Below are positions 6,787 to 60,633 of a stretch of DNA of 64,000 bases, piece by piece. Both the position numbers and the translations under genes were made by a program. Position 1 is the stretch's first letter. Each line of letters starts with the position of its first letter. Origin of the DNA: a virus (lineage: Duplodnaviria > Caudoviricetes); IMG/VR virus record IMGVR_UViG_3300037067_005321, positions 1-64,000 of that record; one strand, 5' to 3'. The notes under the pieces are model-generated. The model did not search any database. It worked only from the letters and a program-made list of their open reading frames with translations, and was not told where the DNA came from.

Positions 6787-6859
6787 GGGTTGATAGTTTA
6801 ATTGGTAAAATAGTGGACTCCAAATCCACCAGATGGGAGTTCAAATCTTCCTCAGCCCG
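6787..6859 (+). tRNA. trnW: tRNA-Trp(CCA), 3' CCA not encoded
   Basis: Acceptor GGGTTGA/TCAGCCC, anticodon arm GTGGA-CTCCAAA-TCCAC, T arm GGGAG-TTCAAAT-CTTCC, discriminator G. Confidence 0.9.
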
Positions 6860-10555: not shown

Positions 10556-10649
10556 TATATGGCTAGGGATGTACACCTGAAAAGAAGGTACTTCCAACCT
10601 TCCTGCCATATATTTTAGAATGGAAGATAAATCAATGGAAGTGATTAAT
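10556..10649 (+). ncRNA. structured leader, class A copy 1 (candidate cis-regulatory RNA)
   Basis: Closing stem TATATGGC/GCCATATA; hairpin GAAGGT-ACTTCCA-ACCTTC whose loop is complementary to TGGAAGT (10636-10642) at the RBS. Confidence 0.75.
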
Positions 10650-11552
10650 ATGCCTAGAAAATTAGAATATGAGTTTATTAGAGAACAATTTGAAAAAAGT
10701 GGATGGACACTTTTAAGTAAAAAATATATTAATTCTAAAAAAAAGTTAAATGTAATGTGTGATAATGGTCATAAAATAAAAGTAAGATATGATCAATTTA
10801 AAGATGGTATAGGATGCTCTATTTGCTCCTTTGATAAAAAAAGACTATCTATAGATTTTGTAAAATCTGAATTAGAAAAATATGGGTTTATTCTAATATC
10901 AAAAAAATATATATCAGCAATAAAAAAGATTAAAATAAAATGTAAAGAAGGTCATATAACCACTACAACTTGGTCAATTTGGAAAGAACATAAATCATGC
11001 TCAGAATGTTCTAATAATAAAAAAAGAATATCATTAGGGATAATATTAAATAAATTAAATATATTAGGTATATATTTACTATCTAAACATTATACTAATA
11101 ATAAACAAAAATTAAAGCTAAAATGTAAAAATGGTCATATATTCTATTCTAGGTGGAATGATATTGATCAAGGACATACACAATGTAGACAATGTTATTT
11201 AAATTCTAAAATAGTTTATGATATAAAAGACATAGACAAATTCTATAAATATAGAATAATAGTACAAAGATTAACTAGAAAAATGTATAAACAATTTAAG
11301 GAATTAATAAATCCAAATAATTTAGAAAGATCGCAGGGAGCTAATCATCATCTAGATCATAAATTTTCAGTATTAGACGGATTTTTAAATAATATATCTC
11401 CTGAAATAATATCAAATCTATATAATTTACAAATGTTGCCTTGGTTAGAAAATTCAATTTATAAAAAGGGAAGTTCATCTATATCATATAAAGAGTTAAT
11501 GATAGGTTGGGAATTATATAATATATATTATATAGAAAATATTATTTATTAA
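10650..11552 (+). CDS. free-standing HNH-type endonuclease with 3 tandem Zn-ribbon repeats (start probably 10650)
   Basis: 3 x C..GH...C..C repeats; HLDHKFSVLDGF...NLQML...N C-terminal domain. Confidence 0.75.
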   Translation: MPRKLEYEFIREQFEKSGWTLLSKKYINSKKKLNVMCDNGHKIKVRYDQFKDGIGCSICSFDKKRLSIDFVKSELEKYGFILISKKYISAIKKIKIKCKEGHITTTTWSIWKEHKSCSECSNNKKRISLGIILNKLNILGIYLLSKHYTNNKQKLKLKCKNGHIFYSRWNDIDQGHTQCRQCYLNSKIVYDIKDIDKFYKYRIIVQRLTRKMYKQFKELINPNNLERSQGANHHLDHKFSVLDGFLNNISPEIISNLYNLQMLPWLENSIYKKGSSSISYKELMIGWELYNIYYIENIIY

Positions 11553-28589: not shown

Positions 28590-29669
28590 TTATTTCATCC
28601 AACCAATTTCTTTGTAAAACTGGTACAAATCATATCCAATATATAGTTCTTTGAGAGTGATTGAAGAATTAGCTTTCTTTTTCCAATTTATTGTTGGTGA
28701 TAGCATCTCTAAATTATATGGATTTGAGATTATGTCTGTTAATATTTTATTTTTAAATCCTTCTGCTACTGAAACTCTATGATCCAGATGAGCTTCATCT
28801 TTATTATTTCCACGTATTAAACCTAATGGATTTATAAAATCTTCTTCTAAATTATATATTCTGTATGTTTTGTTTCTAGCATCTCTATTATAGAGATGAA
28901 ATTCTTCTATTTCTTCTTCTGAATAATATTTATAGATTGATAATCTATAACATTTTGGACATCTGCATCCATTAATCCAATTTGCCATTTTGGTAATATA
29001 TTGATGTCCTTCTGAACAAATAGTTATTAATGGAGATCTAACATTTTTATATTCAGTAGATATTAAAGTATAATTTTCTAGTTCTAATCTTTCTCTAACT
29101 ATATCAATATTAACTAATTTATTACCAATACATCTACCACATCTCTGTCCTTGTTTCCAGCAAGTCCATAATATTTCATGATGATGCCCTTTTGGACAAA
29201 TAAATTTAAGTTTTTCACTAGGATCTTTATATTTAGTACTTAATAAGATATATCCTTCCTTTTCAAAGGACTTTCTAATATTGTCAATACTTTCACATCT
29301 ATTTTCTGAATAACATACCCCACACCTTGATCCATTTCTCCAAGAATTTTTACTCATTGAAATTTTATGTCCTTCTGGACAAATCAAATTTAGTTTTTGT
29401 TTACTATCTTTATAATTTGTAGTTAATAATTGATATCCTTCTGATTCTACTTCTTCTTTTAAATCATTTAATTTAGTTCTCTTATCTTCATGAGCACACA
29501 AAAAACAACCAGCACCAGATTTAAAGTGTGAATATCTTAACTGATGTTTATGCCCTCTATCACAAATAAAATCTAACTTTTGATTTGAGTCAATATATTC
29601 CGTAGATAATAAGACCCAACCACGTTTTTCAAACTCTGATTTAATAAATTCATAAGAATGTTTTTTCAT
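28590..29669 (-). CDS. free-standing HNH-type endonuclease with 4 Zn-ribbon repeats
   Basis: 4 x C..GH...G..C..C; HLDHRVSVAEGF...NPYNLEML; paralog of 10650 and 32321. Confidence 0.75.
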   Translation of the reverse strand: MKKHSYEFIKSEFEKRGWVLLSTEYIDSNQKLDFICDRGHKHQLRYSHFKSGAGCFLCAHEDKRTKLNDLKEEVESEGYQLLTTNYKDSKQKLNLICPEGHKISMSKNSWRNGSRCGVCYSENRCESIDNIRKSFEKEGYILLSTKYKDPSEKLKFICPKGHHHEILWTCWKQGQRCGRCIGNKLVNIDIVRERLELENYTLISTEYKNVRSPLITICSEGHQYITKMANWINGCRCPKCYRLSIYKYYSEEEIEEFHLYNRDARNKTYRIYNLEEDFINPLGLIRGNNKDEAHLDHRVSVAEGFKNKILTDIISNPYNLEMLSPTINWKKKANSSITLKELYIGYDLYQFYKEIGWMK

Positions 29670-29748
29670 ATATTACCTCTGCTATAAGTAATTTTGATAG
29701 GCTGAGGAGTAGATAGCAGCTACTCCTCACTTACGTCCGTCGAACCTA
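29670..29748 (-). ncRNA. structured leader, class B copy 1
   Basis: Closing stem TAGGT/GCCTA; hairpin TGAGGAGTAG-CTGCTAT-CTACTCCTCA whose loop is complementary to ATAGCAG directly before the AGGT RBS. Confidence 0.75.
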
Positions 29749-29752
29749 ATTT

Positions 29753-29780
29753 AATATAATCACTATTTAGCAAATGTCAA
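29753..29780 (-). promoter_or_regulatory. sigma70-like promoter
   Basis: TTGACA-N12-TGAT-TATATT. Confidence 0.65.
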
Positions 29781-29813
29781 GTAGTAATTATAAGTTAATT
29801 GTTATAAATTTAA

Positions 29814-30380
29814 CTAAATCATATTTAATATACCATAAGGTTTAGAAGCCCATTCTGAAGTAGTTGACAAAAATTCAACGCTCAATTCACAGGAGATCTG
29901 ATTCCACTCTGTACCATCCCCAAAATTAATACTACCAGAAGGACGCAAAGTTGCCTTTGGAATACTAATTACAAAATCATTACCAGTTTGGGATCTGAAT
30001 AGTAAAGATACAGATCCTCTTTGTAATGGCTCCATCATTAGAGCAGTTTTACCTGTTCCTAATGTTGATCCAAGAAACACCCTCTTAAAGTTAGCCTCAT
30101 CCAGTTCATCAAACGTAAAAGGAATTGTTATGTTATTTTCAACATTAACAGTTTTATCTTTACGTCTAGAACCATTTACAGTGATATAATGATCAAGAAA
30201 AGTAACTTCAGGAGTAATCTCCGATGTTACAATATTACCCAAACTCCTAGCAGCAGTTCTAAAGTTAGAACCAACTGTAGTTGTTGCAGTAGTATCCAAC
30301 AGGGAAGCATGTCCAATTGTAGGATCAAAATATATATCAAGACCGCCAACTGCGTAGTTCACATCTGATTTTACGGCCAT
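29814..30380 (-). CDS. major tail (tube) protein
   Basis: Position and size; RSLGNI...EITPEV...IPKATLRPSGSINF pattern. Confidence 0.8.
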   Translation of the reverse strand: MAVKSDVNYAVGGLDIYFDPTIGHASLLDTTATTTVGSNFRTAARSLGNIVTSEITPEVTFLDHYITVNGSRRKDKTVNVENNITIPFTFDELDEANFKRVFLGSTLGTGKTALMMEPLQRGSVSLLFRSQTGNDFVISIPKATLRPSGSINFGDGTEWNQISCELSVEFLSTTSEWASKPYGILNMI

Positions 30381-32320: not shown

Positions 32321-33190
32321 TTATAATGCTAAATATTCTCTATATCCAAGATATAATTCATCTAACGTAATTTCTGAAGTACCAAGTTTAGATAAATTAT
32401 CATGCTCTATTAACATTTGTAAATTAAATGGATTAGCTATTACTTCTGGACTTATCCCATTTAAAAATCCATCTAACACTGTATAAATATGATCTAGGTG
32501 GTATTGATATCTACCTCTTGGAAGATTTAGAGGATTAATTATATATTTATATATTTTATATATCTTATTTGAGATTCTATCTACTATTTTTCTATATTTA
32601 TAATATTCAAAAATATCATAAAAATTGTATCTTAATCTAGATTCAAAGAAACATTTCTTACATCTATGGCCCTGCTGAAAATCATTCCATCTTAATTTTA
32701 ACTTATGATTATTAGGACAAACTAATTCTAATTTCTGATAACAGTTGAAATATGTATTTGTAAGTAATTTATAACCCTCTAATTCCATTATATTTTTTAT
32801 TTCATTTATATCTTTTCTAGCATTCCCAGAACAATGAGGACACCTATATCCAGAATACCAATTAGCATAACTCATACTATTTTTATGTTCTTTAGGGCAA
32901 ATATACTCTAATTTTTGTAAGGTATTTTGATAAGTAGTACTTATTAAAATATATCCCTCTTTAAGAAACTGATTTCTAATAAAAGATATATCTAATCTTT
33001 TATTATTAGAACACTGACCACACCTTTGGCCAAATAGCCAACTATCATATCTTATTTTTCCATAATGTCCTTTTGGGCATATATACTCTAATGGATTTTT
33101 ATTATTTTTATATTTATTACTTAGTACTGTATATCCTTCTTTCTCAAATTCTTCTTTTACTAATTCAATAGTTATCTTCCTACGTTTCAT
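32321..33190 (-). CDS. free-standing HNH-type endonuclease with 3 Zn-ribbon repeats
   Basis: 3 x CP..H...G.RC..C; YHLDHIYTVLDGF...NPFNLQML. Confidence 0.75.
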   Translation of the reverse strand: MKRRKITIELVKEEFEKEGYTVLSNKYKNNKNPLEYICPKGHYGKIRYDSWLFGQRCGQCSNNKRLDISFIRNQFLKEGYILISTTYQNTLQKLEYICPKEHKNSMSYANWYSGYRCPHCSGNARKDINEIKNIMELEGYKLLTNTYFNCYQKLELVCPNNHKLKLRWNDFQQGHRCKKCFFESRLRYNFYDIFEYYKYRKIVDRISNKIYKIYKYIINPLNLPRGRYQYHLDHIYTVLDGFLNGISPEVIANPFNLQMLIEHDNLSKLGTSEITLDELYLGYREYLAL

Positions 33191-33287
33191 TATTATAATT
33201 CCTCCTCATAATTTGTTTCCTCTTTTATTTAATTTATGGCAGGTAGGTGAGGAGTACCTACTTTTCGGTTACGTTTACCTAGCCATA
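33191..33287 (-). ncRNA. structured leader, class A copy 2
   Basis: Closing stem TATGGC/GCCATA; hairpin GTAGGT-ACTCCTC-ACCTAC whose loop is complementary to the GAGGAG RBS. Confidence 0.75.
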
Positions 33288-33294
33288 CCTTATA

Positions 33295-36538: not shown

Positions 36539-37173
36539 GGCGTAGCTATTATTCTTTTATCTACAGCTTCTTGACTATTATAAAATATTATTGAATGTTT
36601 CTTTTGGCTAAGACAGACAAAACTTATAAAACCCTCTGGACCAATAAAGAACTCACAATTTTGGGCTAAACAAATTAGATCTCTTATATTAGTCTCACCA
36701 ACTAGATTAACACAATTTCTTACACTTTTATAAATAGGATTATTACCTACTAAAACACATCTAAAATCTTTGTTTTCTTCTATTATAGAATTTACTGAAT
36801 CAATTGAAAATCTTTTACAGTTTCTTCCTTCTAATTTTCCACTATGGGGTTGTAGTATCCAAAATGGTTTATCAAAACAAAATCTATTATGTAAATCAAA
36901 TTGAGGAAAATATTCCATATCTTCATGGCAATCAGCGGTTATCTCTGGAATATCTAATCTAGGTTTTTCTGTGAATTCAAGTTCTATAATGAAAATATTA
37001 TATATTTCTGAAATTGATTGAGCATAGGAAATTGGATCTAAATAAGCAAACACCTTGCATTGTTTTTTTATCTTTATAACTTTTAGGCAATGAATATAAC
37101 TGTCCCCTATCCCCGCTCCAATAGAGGCTAACTCAAACAAAGTTAATCTCCATATATAAATTATAATCTTCAT
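36502..37173 (-). CDS. GT9 (heptosyltransferase-like) protein
   Basis: GIGD, NLVGETNIRDLI...FIGPEG. Confidence 0.65.
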   Translation of the reverse strand: MKIIIYIWRLTLFELASIGAGIGDSYIHCLKVIKIKKQCKVFAYLDPISYAQSISEIYNIFIIELEFTEKPRLDIPEITADCHEDMEYFPQFDLHNRFCFDKPFWILQPHSGKLEGRNCKRFSIDSVNSIIEENKDFRCVLVGNNPIYKSVRNCVNLVGETNIRDLICLAQNCEFFIGPEGFISFVCLSQKKHSIIFYNSQEAVDKRIIATPWECYSDLKRIY

Positions 37174-37369
37174 ATAACTCTCCTAAAGTTATATATGAAT
37201 TACCATTTTTGCTACTATTTTCAGAATGCTCTAACATTCTAAGATTAAATGGGTTTCCAATTACTTCTACTGGAACTTTATTTCTAAATCCATCTACTAC
37301 TGAAAATATATGATCAACATGAAATTTACTTTCATCTTTCCATTCTTTACATTTTGTGCATTGTTTCAT
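37133..37369 (-). pseudogene. internally deleted or minimal HNH endonuclease
   Basis: MKQCTKCKEWKDESKFH joined directly to VDHIFSVVDGF...NPFNLRML; lacks the repeat array and helical linker of its paralogs. Confidence 0.6.
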
Positions 37370-37463
37370 CTTAATCACTCCCCCCTGATTTATCTCCTCT
37401 TTTATTTAATTATGGCAGGTAGGTGAGGAGTACCTACTTTTTGGGAGCTGCCCTAGCCATAAT
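37370..37463 (-). ncRNA. structured leader, class A copy 3
   Basis: Closing stem ATTATGGC/GCCATAAT; hairpin GTAGGT-ACTCCTC-ACCTAC whose loop matches GAGGAG and GGGGAGT downstream. Confidence 0.75.
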
Positions 37464-58375: not shown

Positions 58376-58645
58376 CTATTTCTTTAATTTATTATATTGT
58401 TCTGAAACAGACTTTCTTTGCTGACCTAAAGTATCAATATAGATTACATTAGAATCATAATCACTTTCATTACCATAAGCAGACTCTATATCTTTGCGAT
58501 ATGCTTTTAACCCTTCCGAGTTTTTAGCATAAGTACCATATAACTTCTTTCCTTTTTTCCATTTAAAAGCTTCTGACATATCTTTACTAGTAGTAGAAAT
58601 TTCACTAGTAGCAGAAACTGTTAATGTATCCTGATCAAAGCCCAT
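58376..58645 (-). CDS. hypothetical protein
   Basis: GAGGTGA RBS. Confidence 0.6.
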   Translation of the reverse strand: MGFDQDTLTVSATSEISTTSKDMSEAFKWKKGKKLYGTYAKNSEGLKAYRKDIESAYGNESDYDSNVIYIDTLGQQRKSVSEQYNKLKK

Positions 58646-58649
58646 TTAA

Positions 58650-59516
58650 TCACCTCTTAAAATTTAAGTATAATAGTATACTTTCAAATGTTCTCATTTG
58701 ATCATCTGATATAACCTCATAGGAATATCCATTTTCTTCTGCAAATTTATATCCAGCTTCTATTTTAGCTATAGTTTTTGGAAATTCTAATTTATATTTA
58801 GGTTTTATCTCTTGTATATATCTATCATTAATGATAAAATCTGGTACATAATTTCTAATATGTCCTTCAAATTCATACTTTATTATAAAAGGTTCCATAT
58901 CATATTTGATTACATCATCTGAAAATTCTAAGATATTTAAGTATATTTCTTCCCAAGAGGATCTATATAAAAAAGTTTTATTATTTTTAATTGAATAAAA
59001 ATAACCTTGTTTATGATATTTTCCTCTTATAATTCCTTTAGCAGCATTTTCAGAAACTCTATCAGCAACTTCTGGTATTTTCATTGGATTATCAACACCA
59101 TATTTTTCTAACAAAGTTTTTTCTCTACTATCTTTTGCTTTTAACATTGAAGAAACTTTATGAGTTTTACCAGCAAAAGAATTATTATCTAATTGACTTA
59201 TAGATATTTTATTCTTATGATCTTGTGATAATTTTCTTCCTTTAGTAGAGATATTTCCAATAGCAATTTTACTTTGTAATTCTTTTTTATAATCAGACAT
59301 TAATTTTGCATCTGGAAATAATTTTAAGTATTCTTCTTTAGTTAAATTATGTCTATTTTTTAAATGTTTAGGATTTAAATAAGTTCTTTTTAAACCACAT
59401 ATTTTACACTCAATATAATCTATATTTTCTATTCCATCTTTAAATTTTATCAAAGATTTTTCTACTTCATGTCTTATTAAATAATTAAGAGATCTTTCTC
59501 TAGAAGACATTGCCAT
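58650..59516 (-). CDS. free-standing PD-(D/E)xK (TnsA-N-like) endonuclease with a Zn finger and NUMOD3-like motifs
   Basis: CKICG...HL..RH; HKNKISIS; EKYGVDNP; YRSSWE...YVPDF...EIKP. Confidence 0.78.
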   Translation of the reverse strand: MAMSSRERSLNYLIRHEVEKSLIKFKDGIENIDYIECKICGLKRTYLNPKHLKNRHNLTKEEYLKLFPDAKLMSDYKKELQSKIAIGNISTKGRKLSQDHKNKISISQLDNNSFAGKTHKVSSMLKAKDSREKTLLEKYGVDNPMKIPEVADRVSENAAKGIIRGKYHKQGYFYSIKNNKTFLYRSSWEEIYLNILEFSDDVIKYDMEPFIIKYEFEGHIRNYVPDFIINDRYIQEIKPKYKLEFPKTIAKIEAGYKFAEENGYSYEVISDDQMRTFESILLYLNFKR

Positions 59517-59598
59517 GTCATTAACCTCCGTAATAGGATTATTCTAGGGTGTGGATGAAGATTACGGCCCCATCCACATTTAATCCTGCCAGACCCTA
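59517..59598 (-). ncRNA. structured leader, class B copy 2
   Basis: Closing stem TAGGG/CCCTA; hairpin TGTGGATGGGG-CCGTAAT-CTTCATCCACA whose loop is complementary to ATTACGG before the AGGT RBS; an extra AGGATTA/TAATCCT pairing. Confidence 0.78.
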
Positions 59599-59604
59599 TT
59601 TTAT

Positions 59605-59632
59605 AATATAATCATTTTATTTCTTTTGTCAA
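59605..59632 (-). promoter_or_regulatory. sigma70-like promoter
   Basis: TTGACA-N12-TGAT-TATATT. Confidence 0.65.
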
Positions 59633-59673
59633 GTAGTAAAATAATTATAGTCTATAAGTTATTGATATTATTA

Positions 59674-60633
59674 CTAAATGGCGTTGGCGATCCAATGTCT
59701 CCACTGGTTAATACACCCACCAAACCTTGTAAAAATTGTTGCATAATATCTCTTTGACGTTTCATCCTGCCAGAAATCAAGAGTGACATCCTCACGATTT
59801 GTGGCTAAAAGACCATTCCTCAATTTTCCCATGAACCAACCATCTGTATCAGTAAGATATGCCCACTCCATAGGAGTAAGTATTTGATACATTGTGTTGA
59901 CATCATTATCCTGATTACCAGGAATTAAGGTACTATTGAGAATTGTCTGAGCAGTAAACTTCAATGCAGGAGGAATCAAAAGAACATCAGGTATAAGTTC
60001 TATACGATCATCTCTTTCATCCCTATTGTTAGTTGTAGTATACTGCAAATAAACAGTCTCAAGATTATCCTTCGTCAATGTATATGACGAATTGTAGTTA
60101 GAGTAATCAGTTCCACCTTTACTTGTATGAGAAGTAGAGAAGAAATAATCACCATCATAAATATAACCAGATGCACCCATTGTATCATCAATAACACCTG
60201 TTATAGTGTTATTAAATACATCAGTACCAGCACCATTGGCTCCATAATTAAAAAACTTAGCATAGAATTTCTCTTTTGTAATAGGAAGCTTTTGACTCCA
60301 AGAAGCTACTGCATTCTGTAAAAGATTACCTGACTTTTTAGAATCCTTCATTGATTCATAAGAGAACTTTGTACCTCTTGCAAAAGATTTATTAGCACAT
60401 ATAATTGTGTAACTTTCAATGGGGGCCTCAAATTCTATATCCTCATCTTCAGGTTTTTCTAACAATTCACCCAACCCAATAGCAGACGAAAACTTTTCGT
60501 AAGCCGCATCGGAAGGAATAACATCAAAAATTTGCTCATACTTCGGGGGGGTTTGTGGATAGGCTTCCCAAAAATAACTATATGAGTCACGTTTCATTCC
60601 TTCGGTAAAATCTGAACGTTTTACACCAGCCAT
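59674..60633 (-). CDS. major capsid protein (HK97 fold, Mu gpT-like)
   Basis: Follows the scaffold and decoration genes; DG..FFSTSH, PDVLLIPPAL, YLTDTDGWF, RFG....WR. Confidence 0.9.
   Translation of the reverse strand: MAGVKRSDFTEGMKRDSYSYFWEAYPQTPPKYEQIFDVIPSDAAYEKFSSAIGLGELLEKPEDEDIEFEAPIESYTIICANKSFARGTKFSYESMKDSKKSGNLLQNAVASWSQKLPITKEKFYAKFFNYGANGAGTDVFNNTITGVIDDTMGASGYIYDGDYFFSTSHTSKGGTDYSNYNSSYTLTKDNLETVYLQYTTTNNRDERDDRIELIPDVLLIPPALKFTAQTILNSTLIPGNQDNDVNTMYQILTPMEWAYLTDTDGWFMGKLRNGLLATNREDVTLDFWQDETSKRYYATIFTRFGGCINQWRHWIANAI

Follow-up and report, generated by a model that had tools for sequence, protein, structure and literature searches.

Homing endonucleases are toxic when over-produced, and to our knowledge little is known about the control of free-standing homing endonucleases beyond a few hairpins of phage T4. 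In T-even phages, structures that sequester the ribosome-binding site limit translation of I-TevI, I-TevII, I-TevIII, segB and mobE of Aeh1 (PMC2988022). These structures are single stable hairpins with an internal late promoter, such that late transcripts lack the 5' half of the structure and repression is relieved (PMC2988022). The closest catalogued RNA to the elements described below is int-alpA (RF02996), which is listed by Rfam as an sRNA. The leaders described here (i.e. class B leaders) likewise precede homing-endonuclease genes and probably control their translation in cis by sequestration of the Shine-Dalgarno (SD) sequence.

The window (i.e. the whole stretch of DNA analysed, 64,000 nt) corresponds to the initial 64 kb of an IMG/VR phage record that totals 135.7 kb, carries terminal repeats and has a G+C content of ~29%. 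The main leader (i.e. the 59.5-kb leader) is encoded on the minus strand, flanked by the major capsid gene and a gene for a 288-aa nuclease, the product of which contains a TnsA-like PD-(D/E)xK nuclease domain and exhibits weaker matches to NUMOD3 and zinc-finger-like domains. A second copy (i.e. the 29.7-kb copy) precedes a gene for a 359-aa HNH-family nuclease that directly follows a tail gene, and both leaders are thus positioned directly upstream of a homing-endonuclease-type gene. Near-identical DNA was detected in a groundwater metagenome and a landfill metagenome; the landfill contig is identical over 58600-59833 and therefore provides no covariation information. Four DNA sequencing runs hold parts of the locus, and no RNA holder was listed. 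Coordinates are given in Table 1, with the 59.5-kb leader numbered on the minus strand from U59598 (i.e. nt 1).

Both cassettes have their own sigma-70-type promoter, set in a common context of TACTACTTGACA-N13-GATTATATTA, and the 59.5-kb leader begins ~7 nt past the -10 hexamer. The genome contains ~13 near-perfect sigma-70 promoters, and an ~80-nt leader is found behind only two. These promoters (TTGACA, 16-18 nt, TATATT or TATTAT, often with TGAT before) are scattered and occur also inside the late structural arm (e.g. 13207, 49353, 59632 and 29780 on the minus strand; 70248 and 71113 beyond the window), with several having the upstream context ACTTTACCCC in common. No terminator-like site was seen between the 59.5-kb leader and its ORF. 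Neither leader contained an embedded late promoter in a scan for promoters other than phage-specific late ones, which placed same-strand promoter-like sites only upstream of the whole leader or in the ORF.

Insertion of the 288-aa nuclease gene has separated the major capsid gene from a conserved gene encoding an 89-aa protein (orf89). In two related contigs (L007 and L013), the capsid gene is followed by a terminator-like hairpin and then the homolog of the 89-aa gene, with no cassette at this site, while other nuclease cassettes are present at the same junction in L026, L018 and others, indicating that the promoter, the leader and the nuclease gene constitute one inserted unit of mobile appearance. 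The capsid-to-orf89 junction has the appearance of an insertion hot spot (58645-59674 in the window; L007:4951-5178, L013:4948-5187, L018:4936-5585, L026:4948-6909). The L018 nuclease at this junction exhibits 47% identity over 141 aa to that of the window and is located behind a different, three-way-junction leader. The L018 leader and the J segment of the window leader (see below) have the 11-mer CAGGATTAAAT in common, which in L018 is the first (decoy) complement of the loop. Within the nuclease ORF, window positions 59066-59136 were matched by many short contigs from four metagenomes over only ~50 nt at 80-90% identity; these contigs diverge on both sides, as for a short motif common to many different nuclease genes.

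Table 1. Features of the two class B cassettes and other annotated elements of the window.
Feature	Leader position	Window coordinates	Strand	Remarks
P1 5' strand UAGGG	nt 1-5	59594..59598	minus	pairs with CCCUA; covaries in 10 clade members
J segment AGGAUUA	nt 12-18	59581..59587	minus	SD-like; exact complement of the anti-SD strand; in MFE fold; duplex -6.0 kcal/mol; not conserved in relatives
P2 hairpin	nt 21-31 with 39-49	59550..59578	minus	11-bp G-rich stem, 7-nt loop
P2 loop CCGUAAU	nt 32-38	59567-59561	minus	
P1 3' strand CCCUA	nt 50-54	59545..59549	minus	
UAAUCCU, predicted family anti-SD strand, P3 5' strand	nt 58-64	59535..59541	minus	perfect with J; 3 contiguous bp (CCU/AGG) and isolated pairs with SD
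AUUACGG, full P2-loop complement	nt 65-71	59528..59534	minus	last GG is the SD start
Shine-Dalgarno GGAGGU	nt 70-75	59524..59529	minus	8 nt before AUG
Start codon AUG	nt 83-85	59516-59514	minus	
Promoter of the 59.5-kb cassette, sigma-70-type		59605..59632	minus	TTGACA, 16 nt, TATATT; 11/12 consensus
Free-standing nuclease gene, 288 aa		58650..59516	minus	PF08722 5e-10; phrog_15427 endonuclease
Major capsid gene		59674-60633		Mu gpT-like
Second class B leader		29667..29748	minus	
Second copy, P1		29744-29748 with 29698-29702	minus	UAGGU/GCCUA
Second copy, P2		29703-29729	minus	10-bp stem; loop CUGCUAU at 29713-29719
Second copy, anti-SD AUUACUU		29686-29692	minus	
Second copy, loop target AUAGCAG		29679-29685	minus	7 bp with loop CUGCUAU
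Second copy, SD strand AGGUAAU		29672-29678	minus	
Second copy, AUG		29667-29669	minus	
Promoter of the second cassette		29753..29780	minus	TTGACA, 16 nt, TATATT; 11/12 consensus
HNH-family homing-endonuclease-like gene, 359 aa		28590..29669	minus	phrog_559 HNH endonuclease 1e-38; phrog_681
int-alpA (RF02996) match		10556-10627	plus	before HNH-family gene 10650-11549
int-alpA (RF02996) match		33219-33289	minus	before HNH-family gene 32324-33190
int-alpA (RF02996) match		37396-37463	minus	before 78-aa HNH-family remnant 37136-37369
tRNA gene (one)		6787-6859	plus	64 bits

The initial annotation had described two pairings in the 59.5-kb leader, one between a junction segment (J) and UAAUCCU, the other between the P2 loop and AUUACGG, and both were found to be exact Watson-Crick complements at these places. 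The two targets are, as described, contiguous (TAATCCTATTACGG, at 59541 on the minus strand) and abut AGGU, the last two G residues of the second target belonging to the SD, and the starts of both leaders (GGGTCTGGC and AGGTTCGAC) agree with those given. A closing helix of 5 bp (P1), present in the centroid fold, had not been described and encloses a P2 stem of eight Watson-Crick pairs followed by a G-C and two G-U pairs. The layout of the second copy is also as claimed, with AAGU/ACUU (4 bp), CUGCUAU/AUAGCAG (7 bp) and then AGGU. The MFE fold of this copy contains P1, P2 and a hairpin with a 7-bp stem (P3), in which the SD lies. In both window leaders, the whole 7-nt loop, starting C(C/U), complements the target that adjoins the SD (7/7 in each).

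Relatives of these leaders were sought in 20 phage contigs with a capsid protein of 55-64% identity, which were fetched whole and scanned with a structural descriptor. Nine more leaders with P1, P2, a loop complement beside the SD and P3 were obtained, all having a G-rich P2, a loop of 6-7 nt starting with C and an exact complement of this loop beside the SD. The loops vary by copy (CCUACU, CCUGUC, CCUUAAU, CCUCUAU, CCCAUUC, CUAUAC and CUUACC), each matching its own target, and P1 covaries in the clade (UAGGG/CCCUA, UAGGU/GCCUA, UGCAGGU/GCCUGCA, AAGUGGU/ACCACUU, GCUGG/CCAGC and AGGGU/ACCCU). As the descriptor demanded the loop complement, the test was repeated without this demand by scanning IMG/VR for two P2 stems alone with any loop of 6-7 nt. 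A full loop complement was present at most 30 nt downstream in 34 of 424 oriented contexts as compared to a mean of 2.6 and a maximum of 8-10 for shuffled or permuted loops in 1000 trials. Approximately 29 of the 34 were clear leaders with an SD and start codon immediately after. A covariance model was then built from one such leader, encoding only P2 and P3 and hence blind to the loop pairing; six further copies with other P2 stems were recovered from the same contigs, and the loop pairing was present in all six. On 23 copies aligned with the model (a MAFFT alignment of the divergent leaders being structurally unusable), pairing amounted to 100% in P2, 95% in the loop-target helix and 94% in P3, and compensatory changes were present at 6 of the 7 loop-target pairs and at all 4 pairs of P3. 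None of 500 shuffles reached the values for the kissing helix and P3, and slid controls were at most 64% paired. Almost no nucleotide is conserved across the family outside the helices. The pairing of the hairpin loop with the 7 nt adjoining the ribosome-binding site, as first put forward for the window, is found in every relative, with a different sequence in almost every copy, and the family statistics together with the exact 7-nt complements abutting the SD in both window copies place it far beyond chance.

Homing-endonuclease domains (Endonuclease VII/HNH, GIY-YIG, LAGLIDADG or NUMOD) were encoded by 14 of 20 downstream ORFs, indicating that leaders of this family precede free-standing homing-endonuclease genes whose catalytic types are several and unrelated. 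At the gathering threshold, Rfam models matched the window only at tRNAs and int-alpA, elsewhere than the class B leaders, and no ribozyme, riboswitch or other family was detected at E <= 10 for both leaders, L018 and the loci of 15 relatives. Both window leaders resemble a large and widespread family, with no Rfam entry, of 5' leaders that accompany free-standing homing-endonuclease genes of uncultured phages. When the canonical hairpin pattern was sought in bacterial genomes, a loop complement was located downstream in 5 of 142 matches, of which about three were leader-like (e.g. in an Acidobacteria MAG and a Bacilli MAG), indicating that the family is mostly phage-borne. Neither window leader was matched at E <= 10 in its own genome by a covariance model of the 23 canonical copies (R3). 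Of the two, only the 29.7-kb copy was picked up by a single-sequence model (R2; 11.6 bits, E = 2.6), and a score of 18.5 bits was obtained for L154, which has a canonical P2 stem. Both window leaders are assigned to the family on the basis of common architecture and of intermediates (i.e. L154, L165, L149 and L155) and not of a model score, and their membership is to be read as putative in this sense.

Several members carry an extra hairpin (P1a) at the position where the window leaders have the unpaired J strand. The P1a loop is usually 7-9 nt in length with a 6-nt palindrome (UAAUUA, UAGCUA, UGAUCA, CUGCAG, UCAUGA or UUAUAA), as observed in L342:7729-7760, L310, L326, L339, L312, L351, L340, L325, L319 and L398, in L155:9170-9200, and in L149, L150, L165 and L168. 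An unstructured palindrome of 8-10 nt (GUAGCUAC, UGUACGUACA) replaces P1a in some relatives, and the arm is missing from both class B leaders of the window. The self-complementarity of these loops suggests RNA dimerisation or a site for a dimeric protein. In nearly all members, the 5' strand of P2 is SD-like, containing GGAG or GAGG (UGAGGAGUAG at 29720-29729 of the window; GGGGAGUG in relatives), and the 3' strand resembles the 3' end of 16S rRNA (CACUCCCC, CUCCUCA); P2 may double as a mimic of the SD:anti-SD duplex or may merely be G-rich. One contig contains two well-formed leaders (L342:7756-7808 and L342:9736-9844) followed by ORFs of 2 and 21 codons; these leaders may be orphans left behind by decay or loss of the nuclease gene.

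The other half of the 14-mer behaved differently from the initial proposal. The bases that immediately precede the loop target in relatives (e.g. UUCU, CUCU, AACCU, AUCCU, CCUUU, AUUCUU, AAUCCU and GAUCCU) complement the SD, which immediately follows it. This pairing (P3) comprised at least 4 contiguous bp in 28 of 34 contexts as compared to 5.6-9.5 expected, and the anti-SD half pairs with the ribosome site in 28 of 29 relatives. Variants of the anti-SD motif in the clade are UAAUCCU, UAAUCCC, AAUCCUA, UGAUCCU and UAACCU. Measured against the threshold of 4 bp, P3 has 7 bp in the copy starting at 29748 and 3 contiguous bp in that starting at 59598. From these comparisons of sequence, the UAAUCCU of the 59.5-kb leader is read as the anti-SD strand of the family, whose conserved partner is the ribosome site and not the junction strand, and the anatomy proposed earlier is corrected in this respect. 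As the anti-SD pairs with the SD across the loop target, the conserved design is one of anti-SD, loop target and SD, forming a hairpin that is locked by a kissing loop.

By comparison, a J complement of at least 6 nt abutting the target was present in only one of 38 leaders, the 59.5-kb copy itself, and a double pseudoknot consequently does not hold as the design of the family. The first pairing was missing in relatives, the outcome that the initial annotation had named as refuting, and in the second copy it has 4 bp, no more than chance would give (P = 0.96 for a match of at least 4; duplex of -0.1 kcal/mol). An informative case is L154, a leader of a related phage that occupies the same genomic position as the 29.7-kb copy, after the same tail gene. 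The junction sequence is common to the two (GGUCUGACGAGCGUAAGUG versus GGUUCGACGGACGUAAGUG), and the P2 stem of L154 is GGGGAGUG/CACUCCCC; L154 keeps AAGU and lacks ACUU. In this orthologous pair, P3 changes from AUUACUU/AGGUAAU in the 29.7-kb copy to AUCCU/AGGAU in L154. The reading of the 14-mer by two segments therefore stands in part: the loop segment is kept in position and covaries with its target, but the J segment is confined to one leader of 38.

The class B leader is the 5' leader of a self-contained homing-endonuclease cassette, which has its own promoter, leader and nuclease gene and sits in the late structural operon of the phage, and these features taken together make it likely that the leader throttles translation of the nuclease in cis. 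The G-rich P2, held at the P1-closed junction, presents a 7-nt loop fully complementary to 7 nt located 5' of and overlapping the SD, and across the family pairing of anti-SD with SD brings the two hairpin loops to kiss, the ribosome site being divided between the kissing helix and the P3 stem. We infer that 30S binding would be lowered such that only a trickle of nuclease is made, whether transcription starts at the cassette promoter or reads through from the capsid or tail operon. Control of translation is suggested by this geometry and by the T4 precedent. The 59.5-kb copy would depart from this scheme, as its P3 appears to have decayed to 3 bp, the joint weakest of the clade with L155a, and the SD stem is weak, with only the GG of the SD under the loop helix. 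In ensemble folding restricted to nested pairs, the four SD bases left uncovered by the loop helix were 63% unpaired as compared to a family median of ~0.17, and on this modelled basis the 59.5-kb leader may repress weakly; several canonical copies were equally open at the SD in such folding, which contains no kissing term.

The anti-SD strand of the 59.5-kb leader has a perfect 7-bp partner in J, a pairing that is real in the sequence and thermodynamically competitive and that may have a copy-specific role. As nested alternatives, J:anti-SD with P2 (the MFE fold, -14.5 kcal/mol) and P1 with P2 (the centroid, -14.4 kcal/mol) are isoenergetic, and the J:anti-SD duplex is better by 3.7 kcal/mol than that of anti-SD:SD (-6.0 versus -2.3 kcal/mol), the energies of crossing helices being approximations from nested folds and duplexes that include no kissing or pseudoknot term; on these grounds the J helix should form. 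J may have taken the place of P3, stacking on the loop helix as a clamp, or may be an SD-like decoy that relieves repression. A further reading, which is possible but on balance doubtful, is that this copy is a double pseudoknot or switch in which the SD-like J and the SD compete for the anti-SD strand. If J prevails, J:anti-SD would stack on loop:target in a composite helix of 14 bp, leaving AGGU free and the leader ON or partly ON, whilst formation of P3 would turn it OFF, with the balance set by a factor, by temperature or by the order of co-transcriptional folding. The energies above and the unusually weak P3 are consistent with such competition, as are a second SD-like site in the class A (i.e. 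int-alpA-type) leaders of the same genome and the presence of the 11-mer in this role in the L018 cassette. An exact 7-nt complement of J abutting the loop target has a chance of 0.2-0.9% per leader with matched composition (2.6% for any 7-mer anywhere in the linker), but with 38 leaders examined 0.1-0.35 cases were expected by chance, such that the one case is only suggestive and selection is unproven. The leader has, moreover, no match to any ligand-binding family, and no close relative was found for covariation, the copy from the other sample being identical. The J pairing is a lineage-specific feature, either a replacement clamp or an SD-like decoy, and not a conserved second 'reading head'.

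Both cassettes were without a blastn match in 50,697 phage records, and searches of IMG/VR by peptide patterns found no relatives of either nuclease. The best protein relative of the TnsA-like nuclease is 34% identical and is encoded by a gene (L421) with a promoter and no leader, and the gene of a second protein relative overlaps the upstream gene. Scanning of IMG/VR with the consensus promoter returned only generic sigma-70 promoters of unrelated phages, and the pattern GGTCTGA...GGGGAGTG produced only chance matches among the matches listed. The P2 stem of the 59.5-kb leader with a free loop gave 12 chance matches in GC-rich DNA, and no relative, among 241 million metagenome records. A single-sequence model of this leader (R1) recovered only L155-type copies, weakly, from 21 related records.

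Other explanations do not require control of translation in cis, and each is given a low weight relative to a translational throttle. The inverted repeats could act at the DNA level, as a site at which the mobile cassette is recognised, recombined or bound by a protein, and the location at the 5' boundary of the cassette and the 6-nt palindromes in the neighbouring hairpin loop of relatives are in keeping with this; it is nevertheless very unlikely, as the loop-target and anti-SD-SD complementarities are non-palindromic and on the same strand, and as the fixed orientation and distance to the SD and start codon and the tolerance of G-U pairs point to RNA. A likeness to bipartite guide RNAs had also been raised, by which a trans-acting guide or small RNA would read the 14-nt target with two segments, perhaps together with the nuclease. 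The split recognition of one contiguous target is a formal resemblance only, and a search of the 135.7-kb phage genome agreed with the initial observation of a sole target in cis: the 14-mer occurs once at up to 1 mismatch, with a single 2-mismatch match at chance level. Moreover, there is no terminator between leader and ORF, the same leader type precedes nucleases of at least four protein-guided families, and neither the nearest relative of the nuclease nor the L018 nuclease is accompanied by this leader, making a guide function highly improbable. Equally little credence is given to the idea that a self-cleaving ribozyme or RNA-processing signal cuts the nuclease mRNA away from the transcript of the late operon. 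The compact pseudoknotted fold and its position between phage genes would suit such an element, and RNase processing has precedents upstream of some seg and mob genes of T4 (PMC2988022), but no Rfam ribozyme or other family was matched even at E = 10, and the near absence of conserved nucleotides outside the helices leaves no catalytic core.

The compact leader of this family travels with unrelated nuclease families and rewrites both loop and target in almost every copy. If it acts as proposed, it would amount to a translational throttle that is portable and orthogonal, with relevance to phage biology, to annotation of phage intergenic regions and to the synthetic control of expression. A more speculative extension, which we hold to be rather unlikely, is that J is an SD mimic competing for the anti-SD in a three-partner switch with a 14-bp composite helix, and that SD-like decoys are a general device of selfish nuclease cassettes; if true, such decoys, among them the second targets that int-alpA-type leaders of this phage contain, would tune or time translation of the nuclease.

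Bipartite guides such as the IS110 bridge RNA resemble the 59.5-kb leader in that two RNA segments complement adjacent halves of one stretch; in the leader, however, the target is in cis and 20-50 nt away, the second segment is not conserved and the nucleases encoded downstream of such leaders carry protein DNA-binding modules. In kissing-loop complexes such as ColE1 RNA I/RNA II and the HIV-1 dimerisation site, loops of 6-7 nt pair over their full length between molecules, whereas the class B contact is intramolecular and would serve an expression platform. In the preQ1-II/III and SAM-II/V riboswitches, a loop or junction pairs with the SD region, and the resulting pseudoknot blocks initiation. 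The class B hairpin loop similarly pairs at the SD region, but the leaders have no Rfam match or conserved ligand pocket and are linked to mobile nucleases and not to metabolic genes.

Likeness is greater for int-alpA, in which a closing stem and a small hairpin are followed by a further hairpin; the 7-nt loop of the latter is complementary to the ribosome-site region, itself contained in a small hairpin downstream. In the int-alpA copies of the window, the loop of this downstream hairpin (e.g. AAUCA-GGGGGGAG-UGAUU) carries the SD and complements the 7-nt loop, and a second copy of the complement is located earlier. Nucleases of the phrog_559/681 family are found behind either leader type, and the sequences of these loci suggest that int-alpA is itself a cis leader of nuclease genes. 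The two types nevertheless exhibit no sequence or model match even at E = 10 (59400-59750 and 29560-29900) and differ in the position of the SD, which in int-alpA is in the loop of the downstream hairpin, accompanied by a second decoy site, and in class B is split between the loop target and the 3' stem. As with the T-even hairpins, a cis RNA structure precedes a homing-endonuclease gene and covers a good Shine-Dalgarno sequence, and the purpose is presumed to be the same, namely to keep down or time translation of the nuclease on abundant polycistronic transcripts. Unlike the T-even hairpins, class B leaders have a promoter upstream of the whole leader and none embedded, and their SD hairpin is short (3-7 bp) and appears to be locked by a covarying loop-loop contact with a second, junction-held hairpin.
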